A DNA stretch of 64,000 nt from Raillietiella orientalis. Lineage: Eukaryota. The position numbers and the translations under genes were made by a program. Below the pieces are notes generated by a model. It made no database searches, had not been told where the DNA came from, and saw nothing but the letters and a program-made list of their open reading frames with translations. The DNA lies in contig JAYWIR010000037.1 in assembly GCA_036172245.1 (NCBI GenBank), forward strand, positions 1,736,001-1,800,000, given 5' to 3'. Below are positions 14,505 through 60,843 of this stretch, piece by piece (position 1 is the first letter of the stretch; each line of letters starts with the position of its first letter).

Positions 14505-15377
14505 TTTCCTCTTCTGCTTCGGAGGAAACGACACACGAGAGCCCGCTTTCTGCCGCTCCACGTACTGTGGGACTCCTTCGGTGGAGTCAACTTCTAATTG
14601 CTGCCCCCGACGAACTTGTGGTCCCTGACCGATGTCTGGACGTTTCTGCGTTCCCGCTTTCCTGGAAACAGCCTCTGCTGCTCTTCCTCCACTAGGGATT
14701 CCAGTGCAACGAGCCCCGGCATCGGGTTTTCGCAGAGATTGCATCCCCGAACTGTCCCAGGTGCAGGTCGGCGGAGTCAAGCCCGCACATGCTTTTGGAC
14801 TGCAGTGCCCTCCAGGAACTGGGGCGGAGGCTGGCATCAGAGCTCCTGCACCAGGAGGACACCGCCCGCTACTTGCTATGGAGGTTCTTCGTTCCAGACG
14901 GACGCGGTTGCCTCCCCTTCTTTGTTACGGCCCCACCACGTGCTGGAGACGACGACGTAGATAAGGGGGGTCACTGGGATGGCCATCGCCTGCATAAGGA
15001 CGGCCGCAAGGTGGTCTCACCCGGAGGGAGAAGTGAAGACGGAGATCGCTGGCTTACAGAGCCGCTTCTGAAGTGAAGGGACGGAGGACACCCTAGCCTT
15101 CTTTTATTTATTTTTTTCTCATCCCTCATTCCTTTTCTCTCCGAAACTTTCCCGGTTTTTGTGTACTGATCCCGGTGTATCAGAGAACCCAAAGACCCTT
15201 GCCCCAAACTCCTGGGTTTTCTCATTTTCTTTTGTAGTCCTCCTCTGAACTTTTCAGTATCCTGACCTGCATGTCGGTGACCCCTTCCCCCTGGGATTCT
15301 TTTTTCTCAGGCTAGGAACCAGCGTATTTCCTACCTTTTTTTATATATAAAATAAACACCCTGGAGTGACCGAGTGG
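14505..15377 (+). mobile_element. Truncated L1/Tx1-like non-LTR retrotransposon 3' fragment (same family as 4235-5368)
   Basis: Clear nucleotide similarity to 4600-5370. Contains HMLLDCSALQELGRRLASELLHQEDTAR. 3' end is AATAAACACCCTGGAGTGACCGAGTG. Confidence 0.85.
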
Positions 15378-16442: not shown

Positions 16443-16906
16443 CATTCAGACGACAATCATGAGCACATAGAAAATGCTTTGGACAACATTAAGCAACATA
16501 TACAAGAAGATGACGTACAAGAGTTTAAAGAGCTCGTTGGAAGAATTCAAAATCATGGACGACAAATTTCCGAGGAAAAGCAGTGGATGATCAAAGCCAA
16601 CATGAGGCTGGTAGCTTCCGCTGATTAAAAAAAATACTTAGCCGGTGGTCTCGCTTTGCTGGATTTCGTACAAGAAGGCAGTGTTGGTCCGATAAAGGTC
16701 GGGTACAAATTGTATTGCAAACCTGGATTTCAACTTATGGAGCTTGGGATTGTGGAGCAATCAATCACCAAAGCAATACCAGAGCAACCTGAGGCGGTCA
16801 GCAATAGCGGTTCACATGGTCAGGATTATCAGTAAAAAATCACCAAGTTGAGACTCATGAGGAAGGAAGAGAATCTACATTAGAGGAATTGGTGGCGCGT
16901 TTGCAA
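16443..16906 (+). pseudogene. rpoD: Bacterial RNA polymerase primary sigma factor (sigma70 regions 2-3) fragment, pseudogenised, probable endosymbiont-to-host transfer
   Basis: Translates as QEFKELVGRIQNHGRQISEEKQWMIKANMRLVASAD*KKYLAGGLALLDFVQEGSVGPIKVGYK, then via frameshifts STYGAW / EQSITKAIPEQ / IAVHMVRIISK / GRESTLEELVARL. This is collinear with the RpoD consensus ANLRLVISIAKKY..RGL.FLDLIQEGNIGL..AVDKF...[29 protein letters not shown]...GREPT.EEL. Confidence 0.88.
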
Positions 16907-17719
16907 TAAAGTTGCAAGTTTTGCAAGAAAGAAGTTCTCGGGCAAGTCAAGTTTGTAAGTTTTGCACAGCGATGCAAGATTAATGCAAGATTTTGCGGTC
17001 TGTGCCTCTATCTTCATGCCTCGATTCACCCATATTCATATGAAAGCATCGGAGAAGAGGGCATCGGTTCCAAATCAGGAGACCCTGGCAGCACTCTTGC
17101 CTTGACTGTGATTAGACAATGGTTTACATCTCGATTGCTATCATCCTCTTTCTTGTGCGATCCTTTTGCTTGCCTCTCCTTCGCTCGCTCACCCGAGGAT
17201 GTGCTCGAATTCATGAGAGGAATTCCTCGCAGCTTTCTATCGTTGTGACCTTTGTCTTCTCCGGAGTCTCGAGAACACAGAGGCATGGAAAAGGCGTGCG
17301 TCTGCGTCATCAGGAAGACGAAAAAAGAAAACAGTTCAGCAGGATGCATATCTCCTCAGTTTTCAGCATCGTGGTCATTAGGATGCCGATAGTCTGCAAC
17401 TTTGAGAATGCACTAAAAAATGAGAACTGAATCTGGGATTCGTCATCGAACAGCGGTGGTCCTGCCGAGTAGATCGACGTGTGCCTTATTTGAATTTTCC
17501 TTGGCCCCTAGAGCTGCTGAGTTAATGCACCACGGACGATGCACACCTTAACCAATAGCACGCTGACCTTAGCCAGAAGATCGGGAAGCGAATGCTCTGA
17601 ACGCAAAGTTTCTGTTTCAGCGAGGGGATTTGGCCATCACCTTGCTGCTCAAATCTCCTCTCTGGGAGCCATTGGAGTTCATTGCTCTCTCCATCTCTCC
17701 GAACAGGTAAAGGGATTAA

Positions 17720-19125
17720 GCAGCAAAGGATAGGATTTCCCTCCTCTCTACAAAGTGCCCTGTTGACCTCTGCTTCGCTTGCGGGATGGTCTCAGGAATC
17801 ATGCAAGATGGTGGCAGCAGCTCGTTCTCTAGCGCCGAAGGGTCCTGGTCCGGGATATTGGAAACACCTGGAGGAATAGAGGTCATGTGATCACTCGCCT
17901 GATGCGGGCAGCGGCTAGCAGGCGCTCGAGCACACACTGGCGACGCAGTGACTCGTCTTTCCCGAGCCACCACCATGCACGGGAGCTCGCGGCGGATCGA
18001 CTTCAGGAAAGCAGCCCGGAAACAGATCCTCATATTCGGACTTTCGGAGTACAGTGCCGACCGGGACGAAGAGAACGCTCTCCCACGTGCAGTTGGGTGC
18101 ATTAGTCCCTCCCCTCGGACCATCCTGGCCTCAAAACTGAAATGGAAGCAGACCCGCGAAGTGGAGACCGGTCTCTTCCCTTTGCTTGTAGGGCTGAGGA
18201 GCGTGTTTCCATGGAGACGCCTGTCTAGTTCCAATCCTGCGGGATCTGGGAACTATCCGCCGTGCGTGCGCGTGCGCGCTTTATCGATGAGCCACTCTTC
18301 ATCCGTGGGCGGGGAAAGATGGGAAAAGCCTTTCTTCTGCATCGGTCCTGAGGGCGCACTCCTGAGCAGTAGATTCTTTCCTGCAGAGTCTCCGCCTAGC
18401 CGCAGAGTCATCGCAACCGTAGGCTTCTCTCCTCTCTGAGATGACCGTGAGTAAGAATCTTCAGATATCAACCACAGAGGAGGAAAGGGGTTTCCATTCT
18501 TCAGCTTCAACCACGCCTCGGCTACTTCGCCTTCTCCCTTTTCTAATGCACAAACCCCGGTTGCAAAGGCTGATGCCTTCTTCTGCGGAGGCCTAAACCA
18601 GGAAGAGGAGAACAGAGTCAAGGTCCTCAAAACCGCGATCATTACCTAGGTACGCGTGGAGAAAGCTGGGGAGCTCGGACGGTCTTCCGTCTGGTCGTCC
18701 ACCTTTGTCCCCCGACGCGCTGAAAGTCCTCTTTTCTGGTCCGCCTGCTGAATTCCTCGGACTGCAAGAAAGGGGCGATGCCGCGCCGGCCCTTTTTTGT
18801 TCCGATAGGCTGGTCGCCTCAGGGAAAAACACAGGATCCTCCCTCCCTTTTTCAATAGTCCCTCTCCGAGCAGACGGCAAGTGCGCTCCCACCGGAGAGA
18901 CTGGAGAATGGCACTTGGCGACACCCGAGCATGGACACGAGAAGACTTCTTAATTTTAATTCCTGAAAAGACCCCGGAGGGTCGACTTCCAATCCTGATC
19001 AGTCAACAGGGGCTTTCGGTTTCCGATTTCCACCAAGACCTCACCTGAATCCTACAGGCCAACCAGCGTCATCTTGCGGGGAGAGCTCCAACCTACGGTG
19101 CACCCATTTCTCTGGCGATGCTCTT
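17720..19125 (-). mobile_element. 5' region and gag-like ORF1 remnant of a non-LTR retrotransposon
   Basis: Starts with a head homologous to 30555-30720 and 32178-32350. Nearly open minus frames at 18253-18642 and 17716-18234. Degenerate zinc-knuckle-like ICFR..C....RRE near 18030. Confidence 0.5.
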
Positions 19126-19130
19126 TATTG

Positions 19131-21125: not shown

Positions 21126-21179
21126 CGGTACGCCTTACACGTATCAACTGCTGAAAAAAATATTAATTATCGCATTGCG

Positions 21180-21931
21180 CCAGCAGGAGCTCAGGTAGAC
21201 CAGGAGGACATCCGGGATTCCTTTGCGTTCCAGGAGCTCCATAAAGGGCTCCCAATAGACACAGTCGAATGCCTTGCTTCCACCCTCCCATCAAAATGTC
21301 AAGAGTCGGCTCTACTGTTACAGCACTGGGAACTCCCCTGCAACGCCTTCCGACACCATTGGACCTGGGAAGCGGTGAACCCAAATTGTGTTAGATGTGG
21401 GGAACGGGAGTCCCTCCCCCACCTACTTGTGGATTGTGTTGCCATTGGAATCCCCTGAGACAACCTTAGGGACGCCTTGAAAGCCCTCTTTGTTGCCGAC
21501 GCCCTTCGGCCTGCGGCCTCGTTAGCAGCCTTGTGCTGCCTTCGCGGGATCGTTGCCGCTTGAAGCAAGGCTGCAGAAGGACCACGCGATAAGGGTGCCA
21601 TCCAGCACGCCGCCGAATTTTTGAGGAGGGCGTGGCGATGGCCCCACCTGGATCTGGAATGCAGAAAGAGCTTGCCGGCATCCTGCGAAGGATGCAACGG
21701 CCCCAGCAGCAGCAGTGATCCCTTCCCTTACCCTCCCAACTTTTCTTTTGTTTTTGTTTAGCTTTTTTGTTTATCCCCCTTCCCCCTGCTGCCGTGGTGG
21801 ACCGTACTGGTCTGCGAACCAGTGACCCGGCAGGCTCTGTGTTTCTTCGTGCGTGGCTGGAGCACTGGTCCAGCCACAGCACTCTTTGTAAAAGTTAATT
21901 TTTTAATAAACGCCCCGGCGAAACCCGGGTG
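21180..21931 (+). mobile_element. Truncated L1/Tx1-like 3' fragment inserted in opposite orientation
   Basis: Zinc finger PNCVRCGERESLPHLLVDC. 3' end AATAAACGCCCCGGCGAAACCCGGGTG. Confidence 0.85.
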
Positions 21932-41715: not shown

Positions 41716-41871
41716 TTACAGATGGTACCACTTTTTATCCTTATACTTCATCAACAGTTGATGACTGTTACTAGCAAAATCTTCTGCTTGTCCCATCAGT
41801 CGAGAGGTTCGTTCTTCCAGCTGACCGAGTCGCTCTCCACGTTCAATCAACAAATTGCGAGTACGTGAGAT
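41716..41871 (-). CDS. STXBP5: tomosyn last coding exon (R-SNARE motif)
   Basis: ISRTRNLLIERGERLGQLEERT...KYKDKKWYHL*. Confidence 0.96.
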   Translation of the reverse strand: MSRTRNLLIERGERLGQLEERTSRLMGQAEDFASNSHQLLMKYKDKKWYHL

Positions 41872-44800
41872 CTAGAAATGATTTGTTTTCTTTAAAAAAA
41901 ATTTTTCTTCCAAACCTCGCTAGCAGCATTGGTTGACTTTGCTTCCAGCTGTTCCAAGCTACTGTTCGGACCTGGAATACGTTTTGCAAGAATTTTGGAA
42001 GCTTTGCCACTCTTTTGTTCTCCAACTTTGGAAAGCACACAAGTCGATGTATATTATGTAAACAATACATACATAACTCTTCACGGTCCAAAGGTTTGTT
42101 GCTAACTGCATTAAAAAAACTTTTAATAATATTTTCTCTTGGAGCATCTGGAGTTTTCTTAGGTATGTACAATAACCCTACTGTATCAGCGAGATTCAGA
42201 CTGAAACTACAATTTAAGCAGAAATAATACAACACCACTAGTTACCTAACATCTGCATTAACAGTGAATCTTTGAATCTCGGATGGAGAGCACAGATACA
42301 AGCCATGACCATGATTGCTGAAGCAAAACGTGCGGGAAATCCTAAAAGTAAATTTACAGTTTAGTAAAATTTTTAGGACACAATTGAGCACTAAATATCA
42401 TTTAAAACTCTTTACTGTTCAGCATCTTCATGAACAAACATCTGCTGTCCCCAGATAGAAAGCATTGGGTCAGCAGGACCTTCTTTGTGCGAAGTCTGAA
42501 AACTACAGGATTGCAAGATTAGCTACAAAAATCTAATAAAGAACGCACACTCATCAGTCATCTACCATTCATTCCCTTCTCAATTAAAGTCGAAAAGGAT
42601 GAATAATCAGATCGTCGACTAGCAAATGAAACTTATCTAATCATGGCTCACCTGAGATTTGAGAGAGGCAAAAACAGCTCATTAAACAGCAGCCGTAAAC
42701 TGGGAAGACTGTAGCACATCAAATGGCCATTTGATAAATAACAAAGTAAGCAGACACTATCTACAAGGCCCATGTTATACAAATTATGATTTGATACTAC
42801 ACATACCTTTAATTGAAACAGTATCTGCTTTGACAATAAAACAGTCTTTGTCAGCAATTTGTTGTTTGTAGACACAGAGCTGAGATGGCAGTGCAAGAAC
42901 ACAAGCCTGTTTATCAGAAACCAGGACAGCAAACTGGCGACAGTCAATCATGGGAGAAGAGTCAGTACTAGATAATGCACCCCTACTGCCTGATCCTAAC
43001 ACAACACATACTAGAATGCACATCCCAAACAAATTAATTTACTTTTTTCTTTATCCTCTGCTTTTGATTCTTTCCAGGACTCAAATGGCACAGGAATCAA
43101 AGCATTGTTGCAATCTAGAAAGGACATTTCCATGATGGTCCCCCTAAGACGATAGATGATGCCTAAATCACAATGACAGTTTCACAAACAGCACAGCTGT
43201 TCCCAAACAAACCACTTGATTGTGGCTGGACAGGCTGCATGATCTGCTGATCCACATCAAGAGATAAAGAAAAACTGATTATGATAACTGATCCAAAACT
43301 AGTTCCAATCCACAAAGTTGGAGTAGTTGAAGAATCTAAAAAAACGAGAAATTTATGACATCATTTAAACTAAATGAACTTCTTTTCTTTCAATGTGATC
43401 TTCAATATAATCTATAAAATAAGGGGACGCTGATTTTTTTTTTGTAAACGACTTTTATGTTTAATATAACAGAAGATCTTAAAACTACAAAGCAAAAGTA
43501 CACAAAAAAATTCACATAATAACAATAAGAATTTTAATATGCATACTGAAACTGAAAATTCCTAATATGAATTATATTATGAGAGAAAATTCTATTATCA
43601 CCATTCAATTAAATCAATCTGAAAAATGTAAAAATGCACAATACACTTTACACATGCACTCTGTTTAAATAAATTGCTATCATACAAGGATAATTAAACT
43701 GGCCAAACCTTCCTTTTTAGTGTAAGAATCAATGAACGCAAGGCAGGTAATGCTCTCCATGTTTACATTCTCCAAACTAGAAAAACTTGAACTGCGAGAA
43801 TGAGATATTGCTGAATCTGACTTATCTATGGTGCAGAAAATTAATGAAAAATATGCAAAGCAAATGGAAAATATGATTAATCACTCATGAAAACTCATGC
43901 TTCCTCATGCTTAAAATAAGAAAAAAAATTACACACAAAATGCAAAGGTTTCTTGCATGTATCATGCTTCATTTAAATCAGCAGTTTGTGGAACAAAAAA
44001 ACATTCTCATAGAAACAATAAATATCATTATGGCAAGAAATGCTAATTTACATCCAAAATTTTGTTTCGTGAACATTCTTTGAAATATACTCCACTTAAA
44101 ACTGAAAGCTAGGATGCATAGAATGCATATTTTAATTTTATAGCAGATTTATAATTCCACGCGTATATGGGATTAATCATTCAAAATATATAAAATCAAA
44201 TAAAAACAAATCTGCATGATTGCATGAACTACATAATAATTAAAACTAAAAGTAAAGAAAATATGAATCTAATTGATTTCAGTGAGCAAGTTCCTATCAA
44301 TTACAAATTTAATAAATGCCATAACACATAAAACACTTTTGCACTAATCTTATTGATAAAACCAAATTGCAACCAAATTTAAATCGGAAAATTGTAATAT
44401 GCTCAACATAAGCTCATGGTTGGAAAAAACATCAAAACTTGGACTGTATGGAAAGCTTGCAACATGCAATAAAGACCATATAATTCATATGAGCGGAGCA
44501 GAAGCAGAACACGAAAAACAATCGCAAATATGGTACCCCAAAAAGCCCTGTAAGATCTGGTCAAATGTGACGAGCATGCTCGGCTACTTCCAGCATTAAT
44601 GCCAAAATTGTCTCTATCTCCAACAGATGTCCAGTTACCCCATGGACAATTACTCATAGTATATGGTGGAGTAACAGGTAAGGAAGGTGGAGATGCAGGA
44701 AGCTCAATGGTTTCATAACTAGGAATCGCTATACTGGCACATTTTTTAAGTCGATTTGTTGCAACCCCAGCTTGTGGGCGGGAACGATTTGCTAGCATAC

Positions 44801-47800
44801 AGTTTTGTGGCCCACCTTCCAAAGGGCGTCTTAATATGGCTCCTCCCTGCCCTCCAATTGCTACAATTCCCAACTGTTTCCCAGGAATCGTATTTGAACA
44901 TGTTGCAGAATCATCAAGCAGCTAAAGAAACAAAACAACCATTTTTCATCTGCTGCAGAAATCTTATAATTCTTATAAAGTTTCTTGTCTTCCAAAAGAT
45001 TCTTAAATTGAGATCCCTGCAATTATGAATCAAGCACATGTTTTACATGGAGATGCCATGCACTTTCAACAAAAAAAAAATGATCAATAATTTGTAATTA
45101 GCATCATTCTGGATCTCTGATTTGAGAACATTCTTTAGTTTCTGATTTTTGACAAATACTAGTGTTTCCAATCAAATTGAGAAGTAAACAAAGAAACACC
45201 AAGAAAAAGTACAAGAATGCTCAAAAACAGCATCAAAGTATACTTCAATATTATTCCAAATCTTTAAAATTTGGCTTCAAAAGCATTGAGTAACTACATT
45301 CAATACACTTGCGTGTGTGGAGTTAACACAGTACAATGAGAAAAATACAAAATCATGTTTCACATTAAACAATGTCATCATTTTCGCTATTTAGTTTTGA
45401 ACTAAAATTACATTATATGCAAAGAGTTTGCATATTTGATTTCATTGTTTCGAAGTTATAATCACGGTTAAAACTTTTAGAAAATTAATCATAAATTCAT
45501 TAAGGAAACTCGCTTAAAACTGAACAAGTATTAATTCTCTGATGACTTTCCATGTTACCTTACATTTAAATAAGATGAAAATAAAGAAATCTAATGTACA
45601 CGCAGGAGGAAAACTAATTATTGTCAGCAAACACAAAATTATAGCTACTTTCCTATATGTTCATGCAGATGTAAATGAACCATTTTAGTAATGCAAACTC
45701 TGAGCTGCAAATGCACATATCTTGAGGTGCTGGAGAACAAGCATAAAGAACACGCCTATCAAACTTTACCTTCACCATAATTTTTCAATCAAAAATAACT
45801 TGGTATAATGAAATAATTGGGTTAGCATGCACAAAATGAAACAGAAAACATGGATTGTTACCATGCATAAAATGATGATTTGAAGAAGTGTGGAAAATAT
45901 CGAAAAATATGGAAGGTTTTCGCATCCTTTCAGTTGCCCATAAGTCAATAATAACAGGATTGGAATGAATCATTGTGCCCATATCATACACCATGCCCCT
46001 TTGACATGATTTGAAGTCTCGTCCTACTTTACACTAGATAAAATCTTTGATTTGGTAAAACAACTTCACATTACTTTCTGCTTTGTCGGATTTCCTTTTG
46101 GTTCTAGCACAAAGTGACTCCGGAAGACATGCTGATATAGTATCTTCTGCCTCACTACTATTTTTTTTGGATGATGAAGGCATACAAAATTGTTCAGTTT
46201 CAAACATAACATTCGATTGACAATGTTTTTCTTGACAGCCCACAGCATTACAAAATGCATGAGCTACACTATTGTTGACATCAACATCGGAATTCCCTTC
46301 AGAATGCCATCCAACAGGTGACAATGGCGACAAAAGATGACCAATTCGCTTAAGACCTCGAGACACCAGTTTCTGTTTCTTTTTTAGGTTCTGTTGGTCA
46401 CACACTTCAGTATGACTCTGAAGCTGACTATCAAATCCTTCATTCGGTGATGGAATTGTATTAGTTTCCACAACAGTATTAGATTTATGACAGGAATATG
46501 CTGCTTCCTGAGATGCATTTTCCAGGTCAGTCAAGTGAGGATCATTAGAAGTAGAGGCTGTTAGCATGATTAATTTATCTGTTAATGCCAAAGTCTCTGA
46601 ATCCTCCAAGGATGCATCTAATAGCTTATCCACTGATGCCATGTCAACTCTATCTTCTGTGGCTTCTTCTGCCTATTCAATCAATGTATTACTTAAGATA
46701 TTACTACAATTTTCCTAATTGAGAAAGGAATAAAACTTTTCCTTCACTGGTGACAAGCTACAATTGTTGCAAATTCACAAAATATTCATTTTAAAACAAA
46801 TGCTATTTACAATAAACATCCTAGGAAAAATTCTAATGTACAATACACAAAGAAACCCACCATTTCAGAAGATTTGCTCTGTTCGTCATCTCTGTAATTT
46901 GCATCCATGGGAACCCTTCTTGAACGAGAAGATCTCACATATGGATCAGCTGAACCATACAAATCCACAGGAATCACGCTGATAAGGCACACACGCTGAA
47001 CTATGTCAATTACCACTAATCCTTGTTCACTTCCATATGCTAATCTGGAATTGAAAAGTCTTTAACATTTAATTGCAATAATAATTTCATGATCTAACAT
47101 CTAGTGCAACACATGCACGTACGACAACCGTGAAAACTACTACTCACAATCCATACAAAGAATTCAGTGTAAGTGCTGTAACTGGGATTGGCTGCTGACC
47201 AAGAATGAGTGGCATGCAACAAAGAAGTTCCACCTGATAACCTGGAGCCATTCTAAGATGTCCTTGTTTCGTTTTCAGGAGACGAATTTTTTCCTAGACA
47301 AACAAACGAAGCCTTGTGCAATTCACATCCTTATTTTTGTAACACAATTTAAATCTCAAATTGATTCATATTAAATTACCAGTATCACCGGGTTTGTTTT
47401 AATTATTTATTATTACCTGTGTGACATCATTTTCACTTGAATTACCAATGTTTTTTGAAGATGAAGGCTCTGGAGAACAACTAGAACTTTCTGCAATTCC
47501 TATATCCAATAAAGGTACTTCTAAAACCTAATTGACTCATCATTAAAATAGAACTCATGATGAATACTTTCTACCCGTATCTCTTGAAAAGTCTCGTGAT
47601 TTTTGAATTTGAAGAGTATAACATCCATAGCTGCATTGGCAAGGCAAAATAATCGGCTTTCTGGACAGAGAAACAATAACTGGATTGCCAATAATTCCTC
47701 ATCATGAGACTCCACAGATTTATGTTTCACGACTTCGAATAATTTGGCTGTTCTAAATTTATACAAAAATTGCAAATGTGTTGCAGAAGCATCCCAAAAC

Positions 47801-50800
47801 TTGACGGTACCATTAGTATGACTGACAGAAGATATGTATAAGATATATATAAGAATTCAATAGTCACCCAGTGATTATGATTTCTGAATAACTGCTAGAA
47901 GAATTACCCCACTGGCCCCCACTAATAGGCCATTCACGTTCACTAAAAGTACCTCTGCTTTTACTTTTAGAGCCAACAGAATAATAAGCAGGAACAATAT
48001 CTGCTGGGCATTCAGCAAGATATAAACACGCTGTAACTGATGAATCATTGATATCAATTGGGTATGGATTCTCAAAACACGGAAATCCGGGAGACAATAA
48101 ATCCACAACCACAATATCATTCATTAAAAGAACCACAACTGCATAAGCATCTGCAGCCTCTAAAACATAGATTTCATCAAATACACAATTATCACAAAAG
48201 GTTTTAGCAACGTAACTTTTCTTTCAAAGTAAAACATTCTAATCAACTAACCATTATTGTCATGGGAAAAACCATTTGAATTTTTATATATAAACTAACA
48301 ATAGAATTATTAAGGTTGCCATGCTGTTTTTATTACTGCCTTCTCATTCATCCAAGATCTAACATGACTTATATTTCAGAAAATACATCTACATTACTCA
48401 AATGATACATAATGAAAAATCCCACCCGTTGCTTTTTTTGCTGAATCTTGTTCAATTTAGCAATCCTTAGATGATCCCTGTTTTATTCATTATTTAAAAG
48501 TTCTTTTGTTCTCTGGAGTATTCCTTGGAATCCGACCACGATTTGCGATTCTTCTTACGATTCTTTATCAAATTTGGGAGTTTTGTGATAATCATACTAT
48601 ATCAAAGATCTTGATGCAGTATAAAATTTACGACCTGTGTTTGCAGCCATTAAAGTCAAATTTTTATGATTCGTAATCACACAATGATACATTTTTAAAA
48701 ATTTTACATTCCTTTCGAGTAATTGGGCGTTCTGTTAATTTTGTTTATTTATACTTTTCTTATTTAAATGTAAATACGTGTCTTCTTATTGTAACAATGT
48801 AATCCAATTGTAAGAATTGCAACAACTCTTAAGACTACGAACTGGTCACCTTCATAAGGTATACGCCTTTGGTTTCAATTTATAAATATTGCTTTATTTT
48901 ACGATCCTAATTTATGTGAAAACACAAAGCAACAAGGATGTATTGCTTTCCTAATGTTTTCATTTTCAGTTTGATCATCACAGCAGCATATATATAGTAC
49001 ACTTTTAAAACAATGCCATGTGAACGATCTATTAAAGCGAAATGCTAAACAATCAATTTATTATTAACTGTGTAAGTTGGTCCATTATTAACAGGCTTTA
49101 CGATGGCTTCTCTGGTTTATTTGTCTCAAATTGTATAATCATTCTTGGCACACTATTTTACCAAAAAGAACAAAATAATAACTGCTTATTATAATGATAA
49201 AAAAGGGTGGAATCTTTTGAAACAGACAAACAAACACAATAAAGCAGCGCTCATAATGGCAAGATAATATACTATTTATAAGTAGAACTTCCAACACTTT
49301 ATAATCCACAATAGAACAGTAAAGACATTCTGAACAGATATGAATTTCTCATTTTGAAAATTCAACCCAAAAGCAAACCTCTGCTGTTGTCTACTTTGTG
49401 AGAAAAAAATCAACAGCCAAACCGAAATTTTAATACTAAAATATTTGAAACATGCATACAATTTACTGATAGCAACAAAAAAATTGATACTTAATATAAA
49501 TTTGGATTCTCAACAATCATAACAATGACATCTAAACAGCATTTTTCACTCACTTCTAATGAAAATAAACAAATCTTTGATATTTTTTTAACAAATTTTT
49601 GATAGAGTATTTACTTACTGATGGTTAGACTAAAAAAATTTACACTACTCTTCATTACTGTACTTTCCTTATTACATTACATTATGTTACAATAATACTG
49701 AAGGATACAAAATGAGAACTCAACAAAGGATATTTTTTAAAAAGATATTTTTCTTGAGAAATCTTTTAAGCCAAAATAGCATTAGAGAAGGAACTAGAAA
49801 CCATCAAAAAATTAGTAAAATGGAACTCGAAATAGGTTAAGGTACAGAAAAATGATAAAAGATATCAAATCCAATTGACATTTGATAATCAATTTCAACA
49901 TTGATAATAATCGCAATTTTTAATAATCCCATTATGGAAAAAAAAATCACACATTTACAACTCAGCACTTGAATTCATAATTGACAACCCACTCCACTGT
50001 CGGAAATTTTACTTTAATATTATAAATCAATGAAAAATGAAATAAATAATGGCTTTCATCGATAGTTCGGCTTCCTTAAATATTCAAAAATAGCTTACAT
50101 AACACCTGTGCATTCAAGCATCATATAGAGGGAATGCTCATTATTAAAACACATAGTGACAAGCTTGTACAAGACTTAATAAAGTTGTTTTCCATTCCTA
50201 TATAACTAAAGAGTAACATGTATAAGTAAATTATTTTTGTGGTAAATGGTCACCATCTTTCTCCTAATAACACTTTAAATGTGAATCTAATTGCACATTC
50301 AAAATTATTAAATTGAAAAGAAACAATCTTTCAAACTGCAACACATGCTTACTTCAGTTTTTATTTGATTCCTCTCTTATAATTCCCATTACTTTGGTTA
50401 AAACATTTGGTTGACTTGATAAAGAATCGAATATTCGAAGATTTAATGTTTTCAATGAAAGCTTTAAGGCCTTACTTTGGCAAAATTTACGAATATACAC
50501 TTGTAAAAATTTCTTTACAACACATATTTACAGCACAAAACCAATTATTACCATTTGGCCATGGTGATTCACATAGGATTATAAAATCTAATACGTTGCT
50601 TTCCATTTCCAATATCGTTGTACATTTTCCATCTATTATGGTAACACTGGAATTTCTGCTTACATTACCATAAGCAAGTCCACCCGAAAAGATCATAAAG
50701 GAATCTCTAAGGAGAAAAAATATTGTAAGTCATTGTCAATGCCCAAGCATATTACAAGAAAGGATTACATCTCAAGAATTTCTTTTATATTTCAAATTTA

Positions 50801-53800
50801 ATATCATAAGCATTTGCAATTCCTATAATAGAAAATAGATTTAGTAGCATGCAATGTGCACACAAATAAAAATCTACAAACAAAAATATCTAAGATTTTC
50901 AATAGCAGGTTTAAATTGCAAGCATGTACTTCACTGCATTATGACCAATTACTCAAATTCTTTGCTTTCCTAAAACATCTTTAAAAAACTACTTGTTTTT
51001 ACATAGTTGAGCAGCTGGGCACATTTATTCAGGATTCGATCAGTTATTTTACATTTCATGCAATACTCCTATTTTGCCTCGATGAATGTATATGTTTCTT
51101 GACTGATACTTGATTATAATGTCATACAACTCAATTATTGGCATCTAAAATCGAACTATACAATTTATGATTTGACCTTTAAGCTAGTGGATCTCCAGAT
51201 TCTTTTTAATCAGATCTTTATTATTATTTTCTAGAATTTAAATTTTAGCTTCATATCCGAAAAAGTTTCTTAATTATTCATAACTGTTGTTTATTTTCAT
51301 TTACATCATATACAAACTTTCAGTTAATTTAACAAAGAACTGACTTCAATTGAATGTTTCAAAAAAATAGCTTCACTGGATAACGTCACACATTACTCTG
51401 AAATTTAAAAACTTTCTAGAAATTTTAATGCTATGATTTTGCATCATTAATTATGAAAGCAGCCAAGGATCATTGGGCGAAAATCATTTTTAAAACTCAC
51501 TCAAAATTTTTTTGCCTACTATTTGAAATCCATGCCAAATATCATTCACCATAAAAGTTCCCTACGACTGCATCTTGATAACCCTCAGATGAGTGAAGAA
51601 CTGTATTGAACAGAGACATACAACATCAGGTCTATTCATCATCACTTGATGAATTCATTACGAATTTCATTTAAATTTTTATTCAGATAATCTGAAATTG
51701 ATGAAGGATCCAAAAGCACTTCAATAAATCCATTTACACATAAAGTACTGTCGCAATATTTTAAGCACAGATTCAAGAATTTTGACTTTTAGTTCAAGTT
51801 TCCAATTTTGTTCAATTTAATGTTTGAACCAATCTATTTTCGATTTGATTTACACACATTAATTCTTGAAACCACAATTTACTCAAAAATCTTTTCTGTT
51901 GTTTTAAATTGTAAAGGTAAACAACAAAACTGATCTTATTTGAAACAATGTCATTTCTGGAGTCTGGGTTTGCATTTGCTTTTTTGTACAGACATGGGTT
52001 CGCAATAAATCATCAGTAATTTTTATAATCGCTTTCAAGTTTTAAATGTCGTCCAAGGACAAGAACACATAGTTCCTGTGAGTTCAAATGCATTTAATCA
52101 AAATAATTGTTTATTATTTGTTAATATCAAACTGGAAATGCTCGTGTTTGAACTCTATCCTACCAGGCTACTGAAACCACAAATCCATGTCATCTTTAAT
52201 AAACCTGTTTTATGATAAAATTAACTGTAACTTTATAATTCTGATATACCAATGTCATCAATGTTGACCATGACTCTTGAGTAAACTCTTAGGTAAATTT
52301 GTAAATTTTTCCTTCGTTTCCTAATCTTTGCTTTAACTTATAACAAAACTTTGCATTCGTAAATCACCCAAGTCAAGTATTTCTGTACTTTAATGAATTA
52401 ACCTTTGAATTATGTTTTCACAGAAAACCTACGGATGCACAAAATAGCCGATTACACGAAAATTCATAAGAAATTAAATTATTTGCAAATGTTTTATTCA
52501 AAGCAATACATACCCGTTTTTGCAATGCTTCCATTGGATTTTTTGAATAGCATGGCACGATTCCAGTTTTCCATTTTTATCCATTTTTGCTGTAAGCAAA
52601 AAATTAACATTTATGCAACACAATCTCAAATTGTCCAATTTTTAGAGAAAAATTTTTTAAGGTTTTATTGTAATCCTGATTACGAAGAATATATTAACAG
52701 ATATGCAAGACATTAAGCTGAAAACCAGCTAGGTTTTTACAAATTATACTATAATGTTCCATTATCCTGTGGGAAAAATGTATTCTCGATAAAGTTTCGA
52801 ACAAAATACACTCATGCAGAACAATTTATACATGATTTAAACAGATTAAAACTTTTTCAATTGTTAAAATTCTATTTGTATTAAAAATTAATTCTAGGAC
52901 GATTCAAATACATCAACGTACTTGACTAATGAATGTACTATTGTCAGGTACTTAGAATTCAACAGTATTCCATGTAAAAAATTATACTAAAAAATTCATT
53001 ACATGTATATCAAAAACCCACAATAAATCCGTAGATTTCAATATTTCTCAATATTTAAATTTTGATGACCAGGATTCCTGAAATTCCGATGTTAAGTGTC
53101 CATAAAATGTAGTATAAAAATTAAATCTTTCCATTTAATGATTAAATACGTTTTAAAGTATTATTGCGCTTCTATTATTTATCATTGTGGTTTGTTTAAC
53201 TTTATTTCAAACTTGAAGGGTCAAAATTAACTTGGATTCCTTAAATATAAGAAAATGAGCTTTTCATAAGCTTTAAACTATACTTAGAAAGTTTCCGACT
53301 GAGATATTATCTATTATAAATTTTAATGGCATGTGAATCCAAAGCACACGTGGGATTTGAAAAAATCCCAATTTCCACATTTCTTATATAAAGTTTTTTA
53401 ATTATTGATTTCAATAATTGATCCTATCGTTTCTTCGTATCAACATCTATATTTTGGGGTCATGCTTAATAAAAAATTGCTTAATATGTCTAAAACATTA
53501 CCATATACAATCTAAGCTCTTCTTACAAAAACATATTACTGTGATTTTGTAAATACTTTCTGCTTTGCATCAGTGACAAGCAATAACATTAAATATTCTG
53601 TTACAGACAAAGAATTCATGAATGCTCTCCATGAAAATCTGTCACAAAGGCTTGGTATGTCAGACAAGGATCAAGTGACTAAACATTCTCGCAACTCTCG
53701 AAATCTGTTCTGTAGAGGGAGATTTCCATCCCTCCAAAGTTTTCTGTACAAAATAACTGAGCAGATGAATGCTGAATCTCGTATGTCATAGCAATCAGAG

Positions 53801-56800
53801 GTCAATCCTTTCAAATTATACATGACTCTTACAAGTAATGGTATGCAAACATACCTTCGACTTTGAAAAGGAAAAAAAAATGGAAAAAAAAAATCAACCG
53901 AATAACATGAGTTCTTGAAACATTTGATGATTGAAAAAGAACTGAAAATAAATAATGCAAATAACTTCTGCATTTTATATAGCTTGAAAATCTATGAATG
54001 CATGTACTAGAAATATTTTAATTGTCAGTCTACTGTATGCAATCCTAGAATTCTATTTTATTGAACACAGACCTTCTTTTATAGATTAAAGATTTCTATT
54101 ATCAAATATAATCTACGTGAATAACACAATCAAACAACCTTAGTGCACTCAAAGCATTTCCAAGGATTAAAAAAATTAATATAAATGTGGGTTTTGGATA
54201 ACATATAAGCAAACATTATTTTAATATTCATGACACTTTTACAAATCTATTGAACAAATTTATCAGATTCTGCTTAAAAAGCATTATTTTTACAGTAATG
54301 AGAAACGAACTTTTACCATGGGGAAATTGTGATGAAACTGGTTTTGAATTTTTCGTATTCCATGTAAGAAGAGAACCATCTTGATGACTTGTCATAAACT
54401 GTTTGCCATCATGATGCCAGGATACGCTCTTCAATTTGTTTATTGAATAAAAACGTTGATCAGCAGTTTTCAAGTGCAAATTCCACAATACAAGTAATCC
54501 ACTTTCAAATCCAATCAACAGCTGTAAACAAAAGATTATATCATTAACAATCATTCATGAGTTTCACGATAAACAAGTAAATATGATTTAAACAGACACA
54601 AATTCATAAAAAACTTTCATGAAATCTTATTTGGGTTAATGTTCAAACAAAAAAATTTTGCTAATTTTTTCCCATTGTTTTATTTTACTAATTTAAAACT
54701 TGTCCTCAAAACTCTCAAATATTGTCTTTTTGGATTATTTACATATCTACATTATTTTTTGCATGTTTGATTCCATATTTTCTTAAATTACAGTGTACAA
54801 TTTATATTCTGCAAACTATTAGAAAATTGAATCCTTATCATAAACTGAGTTCAATAGTAAAAATCCACAATGGGATGACTCAAAATACTATATATGCAAT
54901 AGATCCCCCTCTGCCGATTCTAAATCCAAAAAAACTGCAGCTTCCAAAGGTGGAAAACTTTTTTCTCCAATAAGGTTGCCAACAATGATGAAGGAAACGG
55001 AGTTTTTACGTAGTTGAAACTCCAAATTGAAAAATGGTGGTGATATTTAAAGTGAAACAAGTTAGAACTAATGATTATTTTCAAGAACTATAAGAAATGC
55101 ATGTTTTTTGCAGTTTTGGAGTGATAAACTATGCAGATTTTAAGAAAGAAAAAAAAAAACTGCCACAGAAGAATACATCACCAAAAAAAAAGTCCAAAAG
55201 TTAAAAAGAAAACATAAGAAGAAAGACATTTTAAAATAATTACAATTGTAAAAAAGAATGATCTCAGAAATGAAATGAAAAAGATGGCAACAACTTTAGT
55301 GTCTGTAAAGGAAAACAAATAAAAAAAAGTGCTAAAATCAACTAAGTTTCAAGTTATATTAGCGCAGGATATTTTATCGCAGTTTAAATACTGTCACTGA
55401 TGTGTGATAATATAGCATTAGAGTCCATGGCATTTGCAAATTCAGAATTAAAATGCACTGTGTGAACATGAAATGCTTGTAAAACTTTTAAAGCATTAAA
55501 TGGTAAGCAGCTAGTAAGTAGCACTTTTTGAGTAAATCCTGTAATACCTGAGATGGAACAAACAACAATAAAGAAATTAAAATCCTTAACTTACAGATTT
55601 AAAGAACAATTCAGTTACTTAAAGAATTAAAGTGTAAAGCCAAATACAAAATGGCAACTTGAAAGTCATCTTGTTTGAATCGAGTGTTCCTAAGAATTTG
55701 GTGCAACATAACAAAGAACTGCTCAAAAATTAAAAAATCCAAAAAAACATGAGCAAAAAAAAAAAAACTCCAACAAAAAAAATTGCGTTGCTTTGCAAAT
55801 ACTACTGCTTCAAAAAGCTATTGTAACAAATAGGTCAATATGATATAAAAAATTGAAATTTGACAATGAAATACCTTATTAGAATCTGTTGGACAATCAT
55901 ACAACTGCACCACAGCACCTGGTCGAGACTTTTGTTGTCTGCAAAATTTCATTGCGTAAAAATACAAATACATTACTCTGTGTAAGTCTTAAGTTGATTG
56001 TAAATGACTGATTGTAAATTATTTTAATAACTCTTAATCAATACTGTTTTAAAATTATATATTTCAGAGCACTTCAATGCAACTTTAATTTAATTGACAA
56101 AAGTAAAGTAGTACTAATCATACAACACTATGCAAGTGTATATAAAGCTCATTCTGTCCGATAATTGAAAAATTAAATTAAGAATCATTTTTAAATATTG
56201 AGATAAATTAAAATGATTTGCTTCACGCATGATTAAACAATAGTCAAATTATGTATGCCCACTTAAGTCTAAACTTAATTTGTATAAATACAACTTACAC
56301 ATCAATAGCTTTATTCCAATTGATAACATATCCTGACAAAGATAATGTATCGATGTTGGCAACATGGACATTTCCTTTATCCGAACCAAGATACAGCCAA
56401 TGACTTTGAAATGCAACATGACAAGCAGTAATTCTATTGATACAAAATTACAATAGCAATCTCTAACCAAATAATTCTTCAGCATTTTTTCCTTAAAAAT
56501 TGCATAATAATTATTTGAAATTATGTTTTTATAGGATCGAAACTTCTATGTAAAAATTGTCAACACAAGACTAAAAACAATTAAGAAATATATGTAACCG
56601 AAAATGAATATACAAATCAAATAACATGTGCTGAACACAACAAAAGTTAATTTGTTATTACCTAATGAATTTAATTTCTCATAATGTATGATGCTTACCT
56701 TTCTGTTTGAAACTTCAAGCTACACACAATGAGGGGTAGCTTTTCCTTTAAGTTCCATAAATTCACAGTATCATCTGCACAGATAGTAATCAATAATCCT

Positions 56801-59800
56801 TCATTGATAAGAAAACGAATATCTATAACAGCTGTACAGGAAGCATGTTGAAAGTCTGTGTCTACACCAGGGCGTCCAAAACTATACAATGTTAAAGATT
56901 TGTGTGTTTTCTTTTTTGTTTTTTTTTTTTAAATGAGGGCACTCTCGATTGATTAAATATACTTCAATCAGAGAGCATGGTCCCATTAGAAAATTTAATT
57001 TTCATTCACTACACAGAACAAGGCATCACATTCAATTAAACAAAAAATAATACATAAAAAACAACAGCTTTTGCTGATTCCAATACTTTTCCATCTAGTT
57101 TACTTAAAAGTATTCCCAAATATTTTACTTTAGATTAATTTTGACTAAGAATGTAACAGCATATGTTAAGAAACACACTTGCATTTGGGGCAAATAAACT
57201 CTTAACAAATGTTGCTTAATTTTCTGGGCATTACAGTAAGAGTTTATGAATAAATAAAAATCCAGTTTCCTCATATAAATTATAAGTGCAAACAAAAAGG
57301 TTGAATAAAGTGATTTGACCAAGATAAATAGGTTTCACATGAACTAAGAAATTAAAAGACAACTACTGTACTACCTAAATATTGATTAATATTCTGGAAA
57401 ATTTCAACAATTTTCGATAAATTTTTTTGTAAAAGAATCTGCAAATACCTCAATGGAGAAAAAGCAAATGAAAACCTATGCACACTTTTAACACACATCT
57501 GAGGAAGTTTATGCAATCTAAAAATATGATTAGATGATCAACTAATTAAATGATTTTAACTTGTTTTTCATTAATTGAATTCGGATTAATTTGCAATTCT
57601 TTCTAAGAATGCACAAAGAAACTGATGTTCATATCAAATGTTGATCACCACACAAAAAAACGATCAAATATAAAGAGTAACGAATTTAGTACAAGATTAC
57701 TGCAGAAAATGAGGCAATAAAGAAAACTCCACTACTTTCATATCAAGATGTTCCAAGAAAAAGAACATATAAACAGATGAACAAATATTTTCAAATGAAG
57801 TAACTTTACATAATCACAGGTAAACATAACTAAATTTTTATATTTTTCACCTCTTCCTAAATGCATGTTGTTTAATTAACATTTAGAAAACACATACTAG
57901 TCGCAACTGAAAGAACATCTGAACATCTGAAGAACTGGAAAATTCACACTCATAAAGCCTCTTCTAAAACAAAAACATAAAAGAAGTAAAACTCAAAATG
58001 TTCCAATCTCAACAACAGTACTCATGCTCTCTTTGATTGTAACTTTTAATCTTCAGTCACAGTTCACAGAACAGCCTCAAAAATAAAAAATTTGGAGATT
58101 TATTTAGAATGAGAAGGAAATGCAGAATAAAAGTCCAAGAAACACAATTATACAAATATGAAAACTTATCAAAATATTGGCCATGGACCTTCATATGTTA
58201 CCCATCTAAGAGTTGAACACTTCAAGTTTAGAAGCAATTGTTAGCATTGCAATATCCTGAAATCTTTTTTGTGCCACACACACAAAAAAAATGTGGCTTA
58301 TTCCTTTTGACATATAAAAAGTATTGAGTTTTCTTTCACTGATATAAATACTTTTTATATTGCAAAAAGAACAAACTATGAGGATTTGTGAATGCTTTTA
58401 AAGCTAATGAACAAGAAATTCACTAATGTTCGATTTGTTTAAGTTTAGACATAAACACTACGACTCAATGTTCATTGGCTAATATGGAGCTATTTGTGTA
58501 TTCACGACTCAGAAAGCATGCTCTCTGAACCAAAGAAGAAAATGCACTATTCTACATCATAGTTTTTTTTTAAGACTTTCTATAATACTTAAGGAATTTT
58601 AAACAGCTTTTCTCCTTTAAAAAACAAAATGATTCTGACCCTAATATCAATAATAAATTTTTCATGAGTATCAAATAAAAAAGAAATCATAAAGTTGATA
58701 GCAAAGTTTATGTTCACTTCCATGCTGTAAATTCTGACTCTAACTGTAACATAACTCTTACTAAAGAGGAAAACATCACACGATCATCCTAAGAAAATGA
58801 AAAACATGCTACCTTGGATTACTGTAAATGATCTCAAGACTTCTCAAATTGAACTAGGAATTTTGAGCAACAATTAACTAACAAAATCAATAAAGTTAAA
58901 AATTAAATACAGAACGTAAAGCAATAAGAGTATTTCCAGAACATGACATCTTTCGAAATGTTCACTGGCATGAGAAGATATTTTCTCAAACAATATTTTT
59001 GTTTCTTTTCCTGAATGTCTAAATATGAACCTTATGGGTATAAATAAATAGCAAACCAATTCACAATAAGTACATTATAGTATTACATCATAAGTACCAT
59101 CACATCACAAGTATATTATGCAAATTCTGCGTATTACTGCTTATACTGATCATAGCATGAGCTACGAATATTTACATTGTATCCTTGCATTTCAGACCAT
59201 TCCCCACTACTTTAAGTCTTACTGTGACTTTCAATGTGTTTGAAAGTCACAGTAAAACAGTGATAGAGAATGTATACTTGTGATGACTGTTTTCTTGATT
59301 GCTGTTTTAGAAAGCCATAAACATACATGTCCTTCTAAAAACTTTGAACCAAGGTTACTAAACATGCATAACTTAGACAAGACAAATGAATATTCAATTG
59401 AAATGGAGAAGAAAAAAAAAAATAAGCGTTTGGATCAATTTCATATGGCATTTTATTGAGGAAACCATAATTGTGCAAAACACTAGCTTAAACTTAACTC
59501 CAAAACTAGACAAATTTAAATGAATACATATTGCTTACAAAAATTTGAATGCATAAATACCTACACAATAGATGCAGATAAAAAAGACAATGAAATAATG
59601 CAACAAGAGTTCAAGGGTAAATATCTTGTTGGGCTATTAAAGCAAAGACAGCATTCACCTATGCCAGAAAACATTAGTTGAAAGTAACAAAAACTAAATA
59701 TGAAAACAATCGTCAGGAAGATAAATATGAGGGATTATACACAAATATGTAGTTTTACAGAAAAGTGAGAAAGAATTCAAAATCACAAATTCTTTCAATT

Positions 59801-60843
59801 TAAAGTGAGAGGAATAAGCCTAAACTAAACACGCACTCGAAAATGTTTATGAACCAGTTTTGCAATAAATAATCAATTCAAAAACTGGAGTATGAATCAG
59901 GAATGAATACGTTACAGCTAAGCCTTAAGAAAACCCAAACTACTGATGAAAGAAATTGCATGTTTTTGAACTTGTGTATGATCTGTTCAGTAATCATGAA
60001 CTACAGTACCTAACAAAAAACCGAAATTAGTAAACAAATGTAGCACTCAAATAACAAATGAAATAAAAACACAGAGTGAACAATGAAGAGATGAAAAAAC
60101 ACTTCCAAAAGAAACAAAGTAAATCAGAACTTAATAAGAAGAGATACACTAATGCGCACTAATTTTGGAAAATACATCTATAAAAGTAATATAGGTTTGA
60201 CCCTGGATACCTGTTTACGAAACCTAAATCAATTACTAATAATAACTTGTGACTGATGTGAATTCCATTCAATCACTATAGATTATTTTACAAGGAAAAC
60301 TGCGAACATGCAATCAACTTTCTCAGTTGTCTTGTAATTAGATTCAAACCCACAACTGACTACAAGTAAATATAAACCTTGATACCACCTTCCACTACTT
60401 GAGATTTTTTTTTCATTTGTCACATTTCCTGATCGTATTGGCAACAATTTTTGCATTAGGATATATTATGAGAAAATTTAAGTTGACACAGTGAATGACA
60501 GACACTACTTTTTATATTCAAAGGATACATTCTTAACTGACCACTTTTTGTACCAACAGCTAACAGCCGCTGAACAGGGTCAAAATCCATACATATAGCT
60601 TGGAAAGGAAAGCCATGCTTCACAGTCTACAATACAAGCAGACAGTAGGATTTGAATGTTTAGCATTTAATAAGCATCAAAATTCCCATAAAAATAATAA
60701 CAATATACCCTGGACAAAACGAAATTTTCTGGTTTCAAAGTTTCCACAATTTCTTCTATGGTTTCATTATTACGTAGATTTGATGCCTGTGAAACTGTTG
60801 ACCAAATGCCATCAAACACTCCTTTAAAAGTGAACTTCTTCAT
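41716..60843 (-). CDS. STXBP5: Tomosyn / syntaxin-binding protein 5 (WD40 beta-propellers plus C-terminal R-SNARE), multi-exon gene
   Basis: Manually spliced exons with GT-AG boundaries and consistent phases run from ATG 60843 (MKKFTFKGVFDG) through TVKHGFP..DPVQRLLAVGT, FGRPGV, WNKAI, EWPISGG, ITGHTNGTVKFWDAS, SRSSSFSS, LWIGTSFG and LDREELFGE to ERGERLGQLEERT..KYKDKKWYHL* (stop 41716-41718). Confidence 0.96.
41916..42025 (-). CDS. STXBP5: tomosyn exon 24
   Basis: FGEQKSGKASKILAKRIPG. Confidence 0.93.
42073..42200 (-). CDS. STXBP5: tomosyn exon 23
   Basis: TPDAPRENIIKSFF...LDREEL. Confidence 0.92.
42246..42341 (-). CDS. STXBP5: tomosyn exon 22
   Basis: ISRTFCFSNHGHGLYLCSPSEIQRFT. Confidence 0.94.
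42416..42502 (-). CDS. STXBP5: tomosyn 87-nt frame-preserving (cassette-type) exon
   Basis: SFQTSHKEGPADPMLSIWGQQMFVHEDAEQ; phase 2/2; AG...GT boundaries. Confidence 0.8.
42652..42760 (-). CDS. STXBP5: tomosyn exon 20
   Basis: SVCLLCYLSNGHLMCYSLPSLRLL...FLPL. Confidence 0.93.
42807..42995 (-). CDS. STXBP5: tomosyn exon 19
   Basis: RQFAVLVSDKQACVLALPSQLCVYK. Confidence 0.92.
43043..43162 (-). CDS. STXBP5: tomosyn exon 18
   Basis: IIYRLRGTIMEMSFLDCNNALIPVPFESWKE. Confidence 0.92.
43213..43335 (-). CDS. STXBP5: tomosyn exon 17
   Basis: PTLWIGTSFGSV...QPVQPQSSG. Confidence 0.93.
43709..43825 (-). CDS. STXBP5: tomosyn exon 16
   Basis: KSDSAISHSRSSSFSSLENVNMESITCLAFIDSYTKKE. Confidence 0.93.
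44639..44921 (-). CDS. STXBP5: tomosyn hypervariable-region alternative exon B (donor position tentative)
   Basis: Strong phase-0 acceptor TTTCTTTAG, then LLDDSATC...LKKCASIAIP...PPSLPVTPP. Candidate phase-1 donor GTAACT at 44638. Confidence 0.65.
46075..46672 (-). CDS. STXBP5: tomosyn hypervariable-region alternative exon A (donor position tentative)
   Basis: Phase-0 acceptor at 46672 and a ~200-codon open frame inside AT-rich surroundings. Candidate phase-1 donor GTAATG at 46074. Confidence 0.6.
46861..47044 (-). CDS. STXBP5: tomosyn exon 13
   Basis: LAYGSEQGLVVIDIVQRVCL...DLYGSADPYVR. Confidence 0.93.
47148..47293 (-). CDS. STXBP5: tomosyn exon 12
   Basis: LRMAPGYQVELLC...VTALTLNSLYGL. 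Confidence 0.92.
47417..47527 (-). CDS. STXBP5: tomosyn exon 11
   Basis: VLEVPLLD...Ser-rich; phase 0/0. Confidence 0.8.
47575..47821 (-). CDS. STXBP5: tomosyn exon 10
   Basis: HTNGTVKFWDASATHLQFLYKFRTAKLFE...LCPESR. Confidence 0.95.
47868..48159 (-). CDS. STXBP5: tomosyn exon 9
   Basis: AYAVVVLLMND...FENPYPIDINDSSVT...EWPISGG...EIIITG. Confidence 0.95.
50552..50706 (-). CDS. STXBP5: tomosyn exon 8
   Basis: DSFMIFSGGLAY...TTILEMESNVLDFIILCESPWPN. Confidence 0.95.
52514..52589 (-). CDS. STXBP5: tomosyn exon 7
   Basis: AKMDKNGKLESCHAIQKIQWKHCKNG; phases fit both neighbours. Confidence 0.88.
54317..54521 (-). CDS. STXBP5: tomosyn exon 6
   Basis: LLIGFESG...SWHHDGKQFMTSHQDGSL..W...FPH. Confidence 0.95.
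55875..55938 (-). CDS. STXBP5: tomosyn exon 5
   Basis: QQKSRPGAVVQLYDCPTDSNK. Confidence 0.9.
56299..56433 (-). CDS. STXBP5: tomosyn exon 4
   Basis: ITACHVAFQSHWLYLGSDKGNVH...LSGYVINWNKAID. Confidence 0.95.
56699..56881 (-). CDS. STXBP5: tomosyn exon 3
   Basis: FGRPGVDTDFQH...FLINEG...ADDTVNLWNLK. Confidence 0.95.
56882..60528 (-). other. U12-type (minor spliceosome) GT-AG intron
   Basis: 5' splice site GTATCCTTT. Branch-point-like TCTTTAAC lies ~10 nt before the 3' TAG, with no polypyrimidine tract. Splicing restores ...LR I FGRPG in frame. Confidence 0.9.
59219..59255. repeat. Perfect 16-bp inverted repeat with a 5-nt loop
   Basis: TTACTGTGACTTTCAA-tgtgt-TTGAAAGTCACAGTAA. Confidence 0.9.
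60529..60626 (-). CDS. STXBP5: tomosyn exon 2
   Basis: TVKHGFPFQAICMDFDPVQRLLAVGTKSGQLR; donor GTATCCTTT. Confidence 0.95.
60709..60843 (-). CDS. STXBP5: tomosyn coding exon 1
   Basis: MKKFTFKGVFDGIW...ETLKPENFVLSR|GTATAT. Confidence 0.92.

Follow-up and report, generated by a model that had tools for sequence, protein, structure and literature searches.

Wolbachia-like sequences in the window

The window (the whole stretch of 64,000 nucleotides analyzed here) contains only three Wolbachia-like stretches, as detected by blastn comparison with five Wolbachia genomes; a blastx comparison of the window with all open reading frames of at least 80 amino acids from a reference Wolbachia genome (G046) yielded the same three only, with 5 of the 9 matches at E-values of 5.5 or worse. 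Two of these stretches, derived from rpoD and from a kef-like gene, abut each other, and the third one, derived from atpA, lies 43 kb from the rpoD fragment. The features concerned are:

16448..16903, forward strand: decayed piece of Wolbachia rpoD, distributed over three frames (tblastn, blastn, domain map, trees)
16626..16628, forward strand: in-frame TAA, inside 3 inserted nt that Wolbachia rpoD lacks (frame reading and DNA alignment)
16903..17018, forward strand: frame-shifted fragment of a KefB/KefC-like CPA2 potassium-efflux antiporter gene, approximately residues 130–165 of 572 (blastn, tblastn, reading by eye)
59613..59667, forward strand: 55-bp micro-fragment of Wolbachia atpA (ATP synthase F1 alpha) in a tomosyn intron (blastn)

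The rpoD piece is a broken copy of residues 370–524 of the 649-residue Wolbachia RpoD, with 60% amino acid identity, as delineated by a tblastn search of the 64-kb window with RpoD from the Wuchereria bancrofti Wolbachia (P0003) as the query. The match consists of three segments that are collinear in the window: residues 370–487 at 16449–16799 in frame +3 (71 of 119 positions identical, E = 1e-34), residues 489–499 at 16804–16836 in frame +1 (82% identity), and residues 508–524 at 16853–16903 in frame +2 (71% identity). The remaining 494 residues of RpoD produced no match elsewhere in the 64 kb, all other tblastn matches having E-values of at least 4.5. On the Pfam map of the Wolbachia protein, region 2 corresponds to residues 416–483 and region 3 to residues 497–571, so that the piece extends from the linker that follows the non-essential region through the complete region 2 into the first 28 residues (about one third) of region 3. 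At the DNA level, the piece is 70–73% identical to all five Wolbachia genomes (best blastn E = 7.4e-70); in the DNA alignment with the closest reference genome (G046), 339 of the 462 positions are identical (73%), and there are 28 gap positions.

The sigma-70 text is legible in frame +3 between 16425 and 16910, interrupted by stops. The read-through translation (P0001, with X at the stops) matches solved RpoD structures in a phmmer search, with 64 distinct structure chains at E ≤ 1 and a best E-value of 1.1e-10, for what we take to be the RpoD of Francisella; a Francisella-like donor was dropped from consideration after Wolbachia proteins reached 60% identity. The Pfam sigma-70 models gave no match to P0001 at E ≤ 10, and a Pfam search with the separate open frames of the fragment along with the read-through returned only weak unrelated matches (E ≥ 0.005). 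Because the Pfam models are silent, homology is established by phmmer and tblastn, both of which are significant for region 2 and document descent from sigma-70 group 1 (RpoD). Intact sigma-70 regions 1.2, 2, 3, and 4 in one frame are absent: only the residues listed above are represented, with three stops, and the longest open frames over the fragment comprise 67 and 68 amino acids. The preliminary description, made from the letters and a list of open reading frames, had placed an rpoD-like stretch at 16443..16906, collinear with sigma-70 regions 2.1–3 and invisible in the ORF track; the tblastn limits, the Pfam map of Wolbachia RpoD, and the shortness of the open frames agree with it on each of these counts.

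The kef piece was identified by a DNA match, with 74–77% identity at 16903–16999 in all five Wolbachia genomes (best blastn E = 8.6e-13), which carries the identification; the protein match (17 of 29 amino acids) is not significant alone (tblastn E = 0.05). The frame-shifted continuation ‘LMQDFAV’ was read by eye to about position 17018, and the right end (16999–17018) is approximate. The source gene encodes a 572-residue protein that matches the KefC model at 6e-134, which is below the cutoff of that model, and the CPA2 model TIGR00932; an Rfam search of the Wolbachia kef locus found nothing. In the reference Wolbachia genome (G046), the kef-like gene is located 314 kb from rpoD, on the opposite strand; in the window, the two pieces now lie head to tail and meet at approximately 16891–16903. 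Because the kef piece starts at the end of the rpoD piece, two unlinked Wolbachia loci have been fused, and the composite spans about 570 bases.

The atpA piece shows 87–93% identity in all five Wolbachia genomes (best blastn E = 1.2e-15); compared with G046, 51 of the 55 nucleotides and 15 of the 18 amino acids are identical, and the match does not extend to either side. A younger age of this piece relative to the rpoD piece was considered and rejected: 50 positions are identical in the best 55-column stretch of the rpoD alignment, against the 51 of atpA, so that a younger age is not supported. The presence of this separate piece suggests that Wolbachia debris is scattered in the host genome.

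Host gene, flanks, and repeats

The host chromosome was characterized from a gene at the right side of the window:

41719..60843, reverse strand: host tomosyn (syntaxin-binding protein 5, STXBP5) gene, at least 15 exons (tblastn, tree)

Fifteen collinear tblastn pieces run from 60843 to 41719 and correspond to residues 1–1325 of a wasp protein, with 27–67% identity; the introns are AT-rich and 0.1–4 kb long. In a tree built from 958 concatenated host residues and 25 other proteins (quick search, SH-aLRT only), the host falls within Arthropoda (SH-aLRT 97) and Pancrustacea (99), without resolution between malacostracans and insects. Thus, the host is an animal, as the preliminary description had it, and belongs to a Wolbachia-carrying group (arthropods and some nematodes). 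For the best-conserved tomosyn exon, the highest identity in an exhaustive HMMER search of 15 billion public proteins was 69%, which indicates that the host lineage is thinly covered in public data; the named proteins at 61–66% include those of a wasp, a gastropod, stick insects, krill, shrimp, and Drosophila. A protein atlas search with the host exon gave no usable match. A hymenopteran host was a rejected candidate: the best 120 listed matches are all from Hymenoptera (62–72%), but a mollusc, crustaceans, and other insects are similarly close on that exon (63–66%).

In the assembly, the rpoD/kef composite is continuous with flanks that are non-bacterial by blastn and blastx. The recognized host exon closest to the rpoD fragment lies 25 kb away, where the GC content is very different: the composition is bimodal, with 39–59% GC up to 36 kb and 27–37% GC from 43 to 62 kb. 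A sharp GC contrast accordingly sets the repeat-bearing left part (1–36000) against the gene-bearing right part (43000–62000), and rpoD/kef lies in the GC-richer one; the contrast may be natural or may mark a join made in the assembly. The repeats and retroelement traces are:

21108–21455, forward strand: open frame with a weak zf-RVT match (E = 2.8e-4, below the Pfam cutoff)
14696–15076, forward strand: open frame whose Cys-His motif looks, by eye, like a zf-RVT zinc-binding tail
4600–4913 and 14552–14865: old dispersed 314-nt repeat, 69% identical over 318 aligned columns
25670–25979 and 29968–30277: pair of 310-nt inverted repeats, 96% complementary, 3988 nt apart
18968–19214 and 32098–32335: three adjacent inverted-repeat matches of 67–86 nt, 78–95%

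Neither of the two open frames contains an intact reverse transcriptase. The 310-nt inverted repeats may be the termini of a foldback element or DNA transposon, and the three adjacent matches point to a pair of diverged copies of a single element, inverted relative to each other. The Pfam search of the 133 open frames of at least 90 amino acids detected only one zf-RVT and one WD40-like match; the Rfam search of the 64-kb window produced nothing, and no tRNAs were found in it. The earlier statement that the bacterial fragment is flanked by eukaryotic repeats is therefore to be modified: the flanks are non-bacterial, and decayed retroelement traces occur nearby, but the immediate flanks of rpoD/kef are single-copy within the window.

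Phylogenetic affinity of the rpoD fragment

When 5.8 billion proteins were searched by word index, with the search limited to longer ones, 521 candidates yielded 5 matches, and the 4 named ones among these are Wolbachia RpoD (58–60% identity, E-values from 1.6e-30 to 1.3e-28). The linker that precedes region 2 includes a 17-residue run, NIKQHIQEDDVQEFKEL, that is identical in the fragment and in Wolbachia RpoD; this linker is otherwise poorly conserved. Among 98 Anaplasmataceae genomes, 95 match the rpoD read-through, and these fall into two blocks, one of 59 genomes, including those titled Wolbachia, with E-values from 5e-36 to 5e-25 and 48–59% identity, and the other of 36 genomes, with E-values of 2.8e-23 or worse and 28–45% identity. 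In five non-Wolbachia Anaplasmataceae genomes, blastn found no significant match to the rpoD piece (the best E-values, 0.009–0.04, belong to short matches elsewhere in the query), nothing significant for the kef piece (one weak overlapping match, 68%, E = 0.04), and no match to the atpA piece.

Separately, near-intact Wolbachia-type RpoD proteins (P0013, P0024, and P0102; 90% identical over the query region) are filed in the databases under spider and bark-beetle names, and one of these, 774 amino acids long, carries an extra Pfam domain. These proteins likely represent contamination of, or recent transfers in, the respective assemblies.

For phylogenetic analysis, 45 Wolbachia rows were taken from 44 of the 59 genomes of the first block (one genome was entered twice and the other 15 were left out). 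In the protein tree (74 rows, 180 columns, quick search), the fragment falls within a 56-row Wolbachia clade (SH-aLRT 99), with no resolution of its position inside the clade. In the DNA tree (52 rows, 540 columns, careful search), Wolbachia together with the fragment is supported at 100/99, and the fragment is nested in a 22-row Wolbachia subclade (97/90) that includes wStur, the cat-flea strain wCfeJ, and the rows identical with, or neighbours of, named proteins of supergroup D (hosts Wuchereria, Brugia, and Litomosoides); a separate 14-row clade (100/98) contains the proteins named as groups A and B. Under the approximately unbiased (AU) test, trees that unite the fragment with the nearest genus outside Wolbachia (p = 0.022) or with the five Anaplasma/Ehrlichia-like rows (p = 0.0098) are rejected, and those that place it outside all 45 Wolbachia rows (p = 0.19) or with the A/B clade (p = 0.24) are not. 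Because neither of the latter alternatives is rejected, the nested placement is a matter of bootstrap support, and it is on this support that the donor would lie outside the A/B clade.

On the evidence of these sequence comparisons, the donor is Wolbachia or something nearer to Wolbachia than any other sampled genus. The preliminary description had guessed at a Wolbachia- or Rickettsiales-type endosymbiont and had proposed a comparison with bacterial RpoD and a phylogeny as checks; with the tblastn match at E = 1e-34, both trees leading to the Wolbachia clade, and the two AU rejections, this guess has been sharpened to Wolbachia.

Two other sources of the fragment have to be weighed against these results. 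One is a lineage within Anaplasmataceae that would be an unsampled sister or stem group of Wolbachia rather than a part of its crown group. Such a donor would be compatible with the acceptance by the AU test of the 45 Wolbachia rows together with the fragment outside, and also with the very long end branch of the fragment, which makes its placement unsure (2.28 in the protein tree and 0.72 in the DNA tree, the latter being a maximum likelihood estimate that exceeds the true distance, since the model assigns slow rates to conserved sites). However, the unconstrained DNA tree puts the fragment inside Wolbachia, within the 22-row clade, and the kef and atpA pieces match all five Wolbachia genomes (74–93%) and none of the five other Anaplasmataceae significantly, so we regard a stem-lineage donor as quite unlikely. 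The other conceivable source is eukaryotic. Plants, algae, and apicomplexans possess nuclear sigma-70 genes, and the fragment could in principle be a pseudogene of such a nuclear gene for a plastid-type sigma factor; the probability of this origin is negligible given that the tomosyn tree places the host in Pancrustacea and that the fragment nests in Wolbachia, with which it shares the Wolbachia-specific linker.

Decay of the fragment

In the frame +3 read-through of the rpoD fragment, the TAA at 16626–16628 is followed by a further TAA and a TAG downstream. The tblastn segments show two frame changes, and the DNA alignments show 7–9 indels, most of which are not multiples of three; the MAFFT alignment has four deletions (7, 6, 2, and 33 nt) and three insertions (3, 1, and 1 nt). 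The in-frame TAA and no fewer than three frameshifts had been noted from the letters alone, and the alignments bear this out.

Over the columns of the fragment, Wolbachia genomes differ among themselves by a median of 15%. The private differences of the fragment, scored at sites that are at least 95% conserved across the 45 Wolbachia rows, are distributed evenly across codon positions, with 23 of 114 first, 23 of 123 second, and 5 of 19 third positions changed (about 20% each), for a total of 51 of 256 conserved sites (19.9%; Jukes-Cantor distance 0.23). This pattern is as expected in the absence of selection on the protein. The GC content of the fragment is 42.5%, compared with 35% for the Wolbachia rpoD segment and 48–51% for the flanks; per site, changes from AT to GC (30 of 162) are slightly more frequent than changes from GC to AT (15 of 94), an excess that fits drift toward the local host composition. 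The equal change at all codon positions, together with the rise in GC, therefore points to a long evolution as non-coding host DNA. The rpoD/kef remnant has no coding capacity and, to judge from its decay, probably no function.

The same features bear on the possibility that Wolbachia reads present in the sample were misjoined to host sequence during assembly. Wolbachia sequence is common in arthropod assemblies, as illustrated by the RpoD proteins that the databases attribute to spiders and beetles. However, a live Wolbachia needs an intact rpoD, whereas this copy is 27% diverged and combines stops and frameshifts with equal change at the three codon positions; moreover, the rpoD piece is only about 455 bp long, is fused to a piece of an unrelated gene, and has a GC content shifted toward that of the host. 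Because a live Wolbachia cannot hold such an rpoD as its sole copy, simple contamination is excluded on internal evidence, and we assign a very low probability to misassembly in general. The argument from decay against contamination by a live bacterium, already made in the preliminary description, is thus reinforced by the codon-position pattern and the GC shift in addition to the stops and frame changes.

Co-option of the fragment as, for instance, a transcribed non-coding RNA or a portion of a host exon appears highly improbable as well. Some nuclear Wolbachia transfers are transcribed, according to the account of those in filarial nematodes (PMC3849323), but the locus analyzed here has no open frame longer than 68 amino acids, its substitution pattern is neutral, and it matches no Rfam family.

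Origin, age, and implications

Taken together, these observations lead us to consider it roughly 90% probable that the rpoD/kef remnant is a nuclear Wolbachia transfer, that is, a non-functional fossil in the chromosome of a pancrustacean arthropod. By analogy with organelle and endosymbiont transfers, pieces of the Wolbachia chromosome would have entered the nucleus of the host germline, and, as with mitochondrial-to-nuclear copies, these bacterial pieces would have been end-joined into a chromosome break. The rpoD and kef pieces might have been ligated at insertion, or else, a larger insert might have been cut down later. Subsequent evolution has been neutral, with accumulation of stops, indels, and approximately 0.23 substitutions per site, and with the GC content moving toward that of the local host sequence. 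With an assumed neutral rate of about 1–5e-9 per site per year, the transfer would date back tens of millions of years or more, an estimate to be read as an order of magnitude only.

Transfer of Wolbachia DNA to host nuclei is common and usually results in dead DNA; the remnant described here is a typical small, old case that carries little mechanistic weight. In practical terms, the assembly contains Wolbachia-derived debris that should neither be annotated as genes nor be taken for contamination. In historical terms, the remnant records a past or present association of a pancrustacean lineage with Wolbachia that, to judge by the bootstrap support, would fall outside the A/B clade, and if orthologous copies exist in related hosts, the locus could help to date this association. 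A more far-reaching interpretation, under which the fragments are old fossils of a non-A/B Wolbachia infection in a pancrustacean lineage without a close relative among public proteins, is unlikely. If true, it could reveal a lost symbiosis in that lineage, and if the fossil proved to be shared by hosts of known divergence, it would provide a rare external time point for the history of the Wolbachia supergroups.

Comparison with known systems

As a sequence, the fragment is homologous to RpoD (sigma-70 group 1) from the linker through region 2 into the beginning of region 3, and differs from any working RpoD in the absence of regions 1.1 and 1.2, most of region 3, and all of region 4, as well as in the presence of stops and frameshifts.

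As a nuclear insertion, it has close described counterparts in nematodes. Nuclear Wolbachia transfers (nuwts, or NUWTs) are described in the filarial nematode Brugia malayi (PMC3849323) and also in the Wolbachia-free Loa loa, Acanthocheilonema viteae, and Onchocerca flexuosa (10.1101/2025.03.17.643741; PMC2882956). As outlined in these reports, the filarial nuwts are, like the remnant analyzed here, short, rearranged, and inactivated pieces of Wolbachia genes in host nuclear DNA, for which the donor lineage can be assigned by phylogeny; the differences are that the host in the present case is a pancrustacean arthropod rather than a nematode and that three pieces occur within one 64-kb window. 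In Dictyocaulus viviparus, nearly 1 Mb of Wolbachia ‘genomic fossils’ has been catalogued, a live infection has been argued to be absent, and the fossils have been taken as traces of a past infection (PMC4046930). By the description given in that paper, the likeness extends to short length, inactivation by mutations, co-assembly with the host, and greatest similarity to non-A/B strains.

With the large Wolbachia insertions of insects, the remnant shares the direction of transfer, from Wolbachia to the nucleus of an arthropod. Those insertions, however, are recent, near-identical to their source, and span nearly the whole genome, whereas the remnant comprises about 570 bp and is about 27% diverged. 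What is new here is the kef piece that abuts rpoD and the atpA piece in the tomosyn intron.
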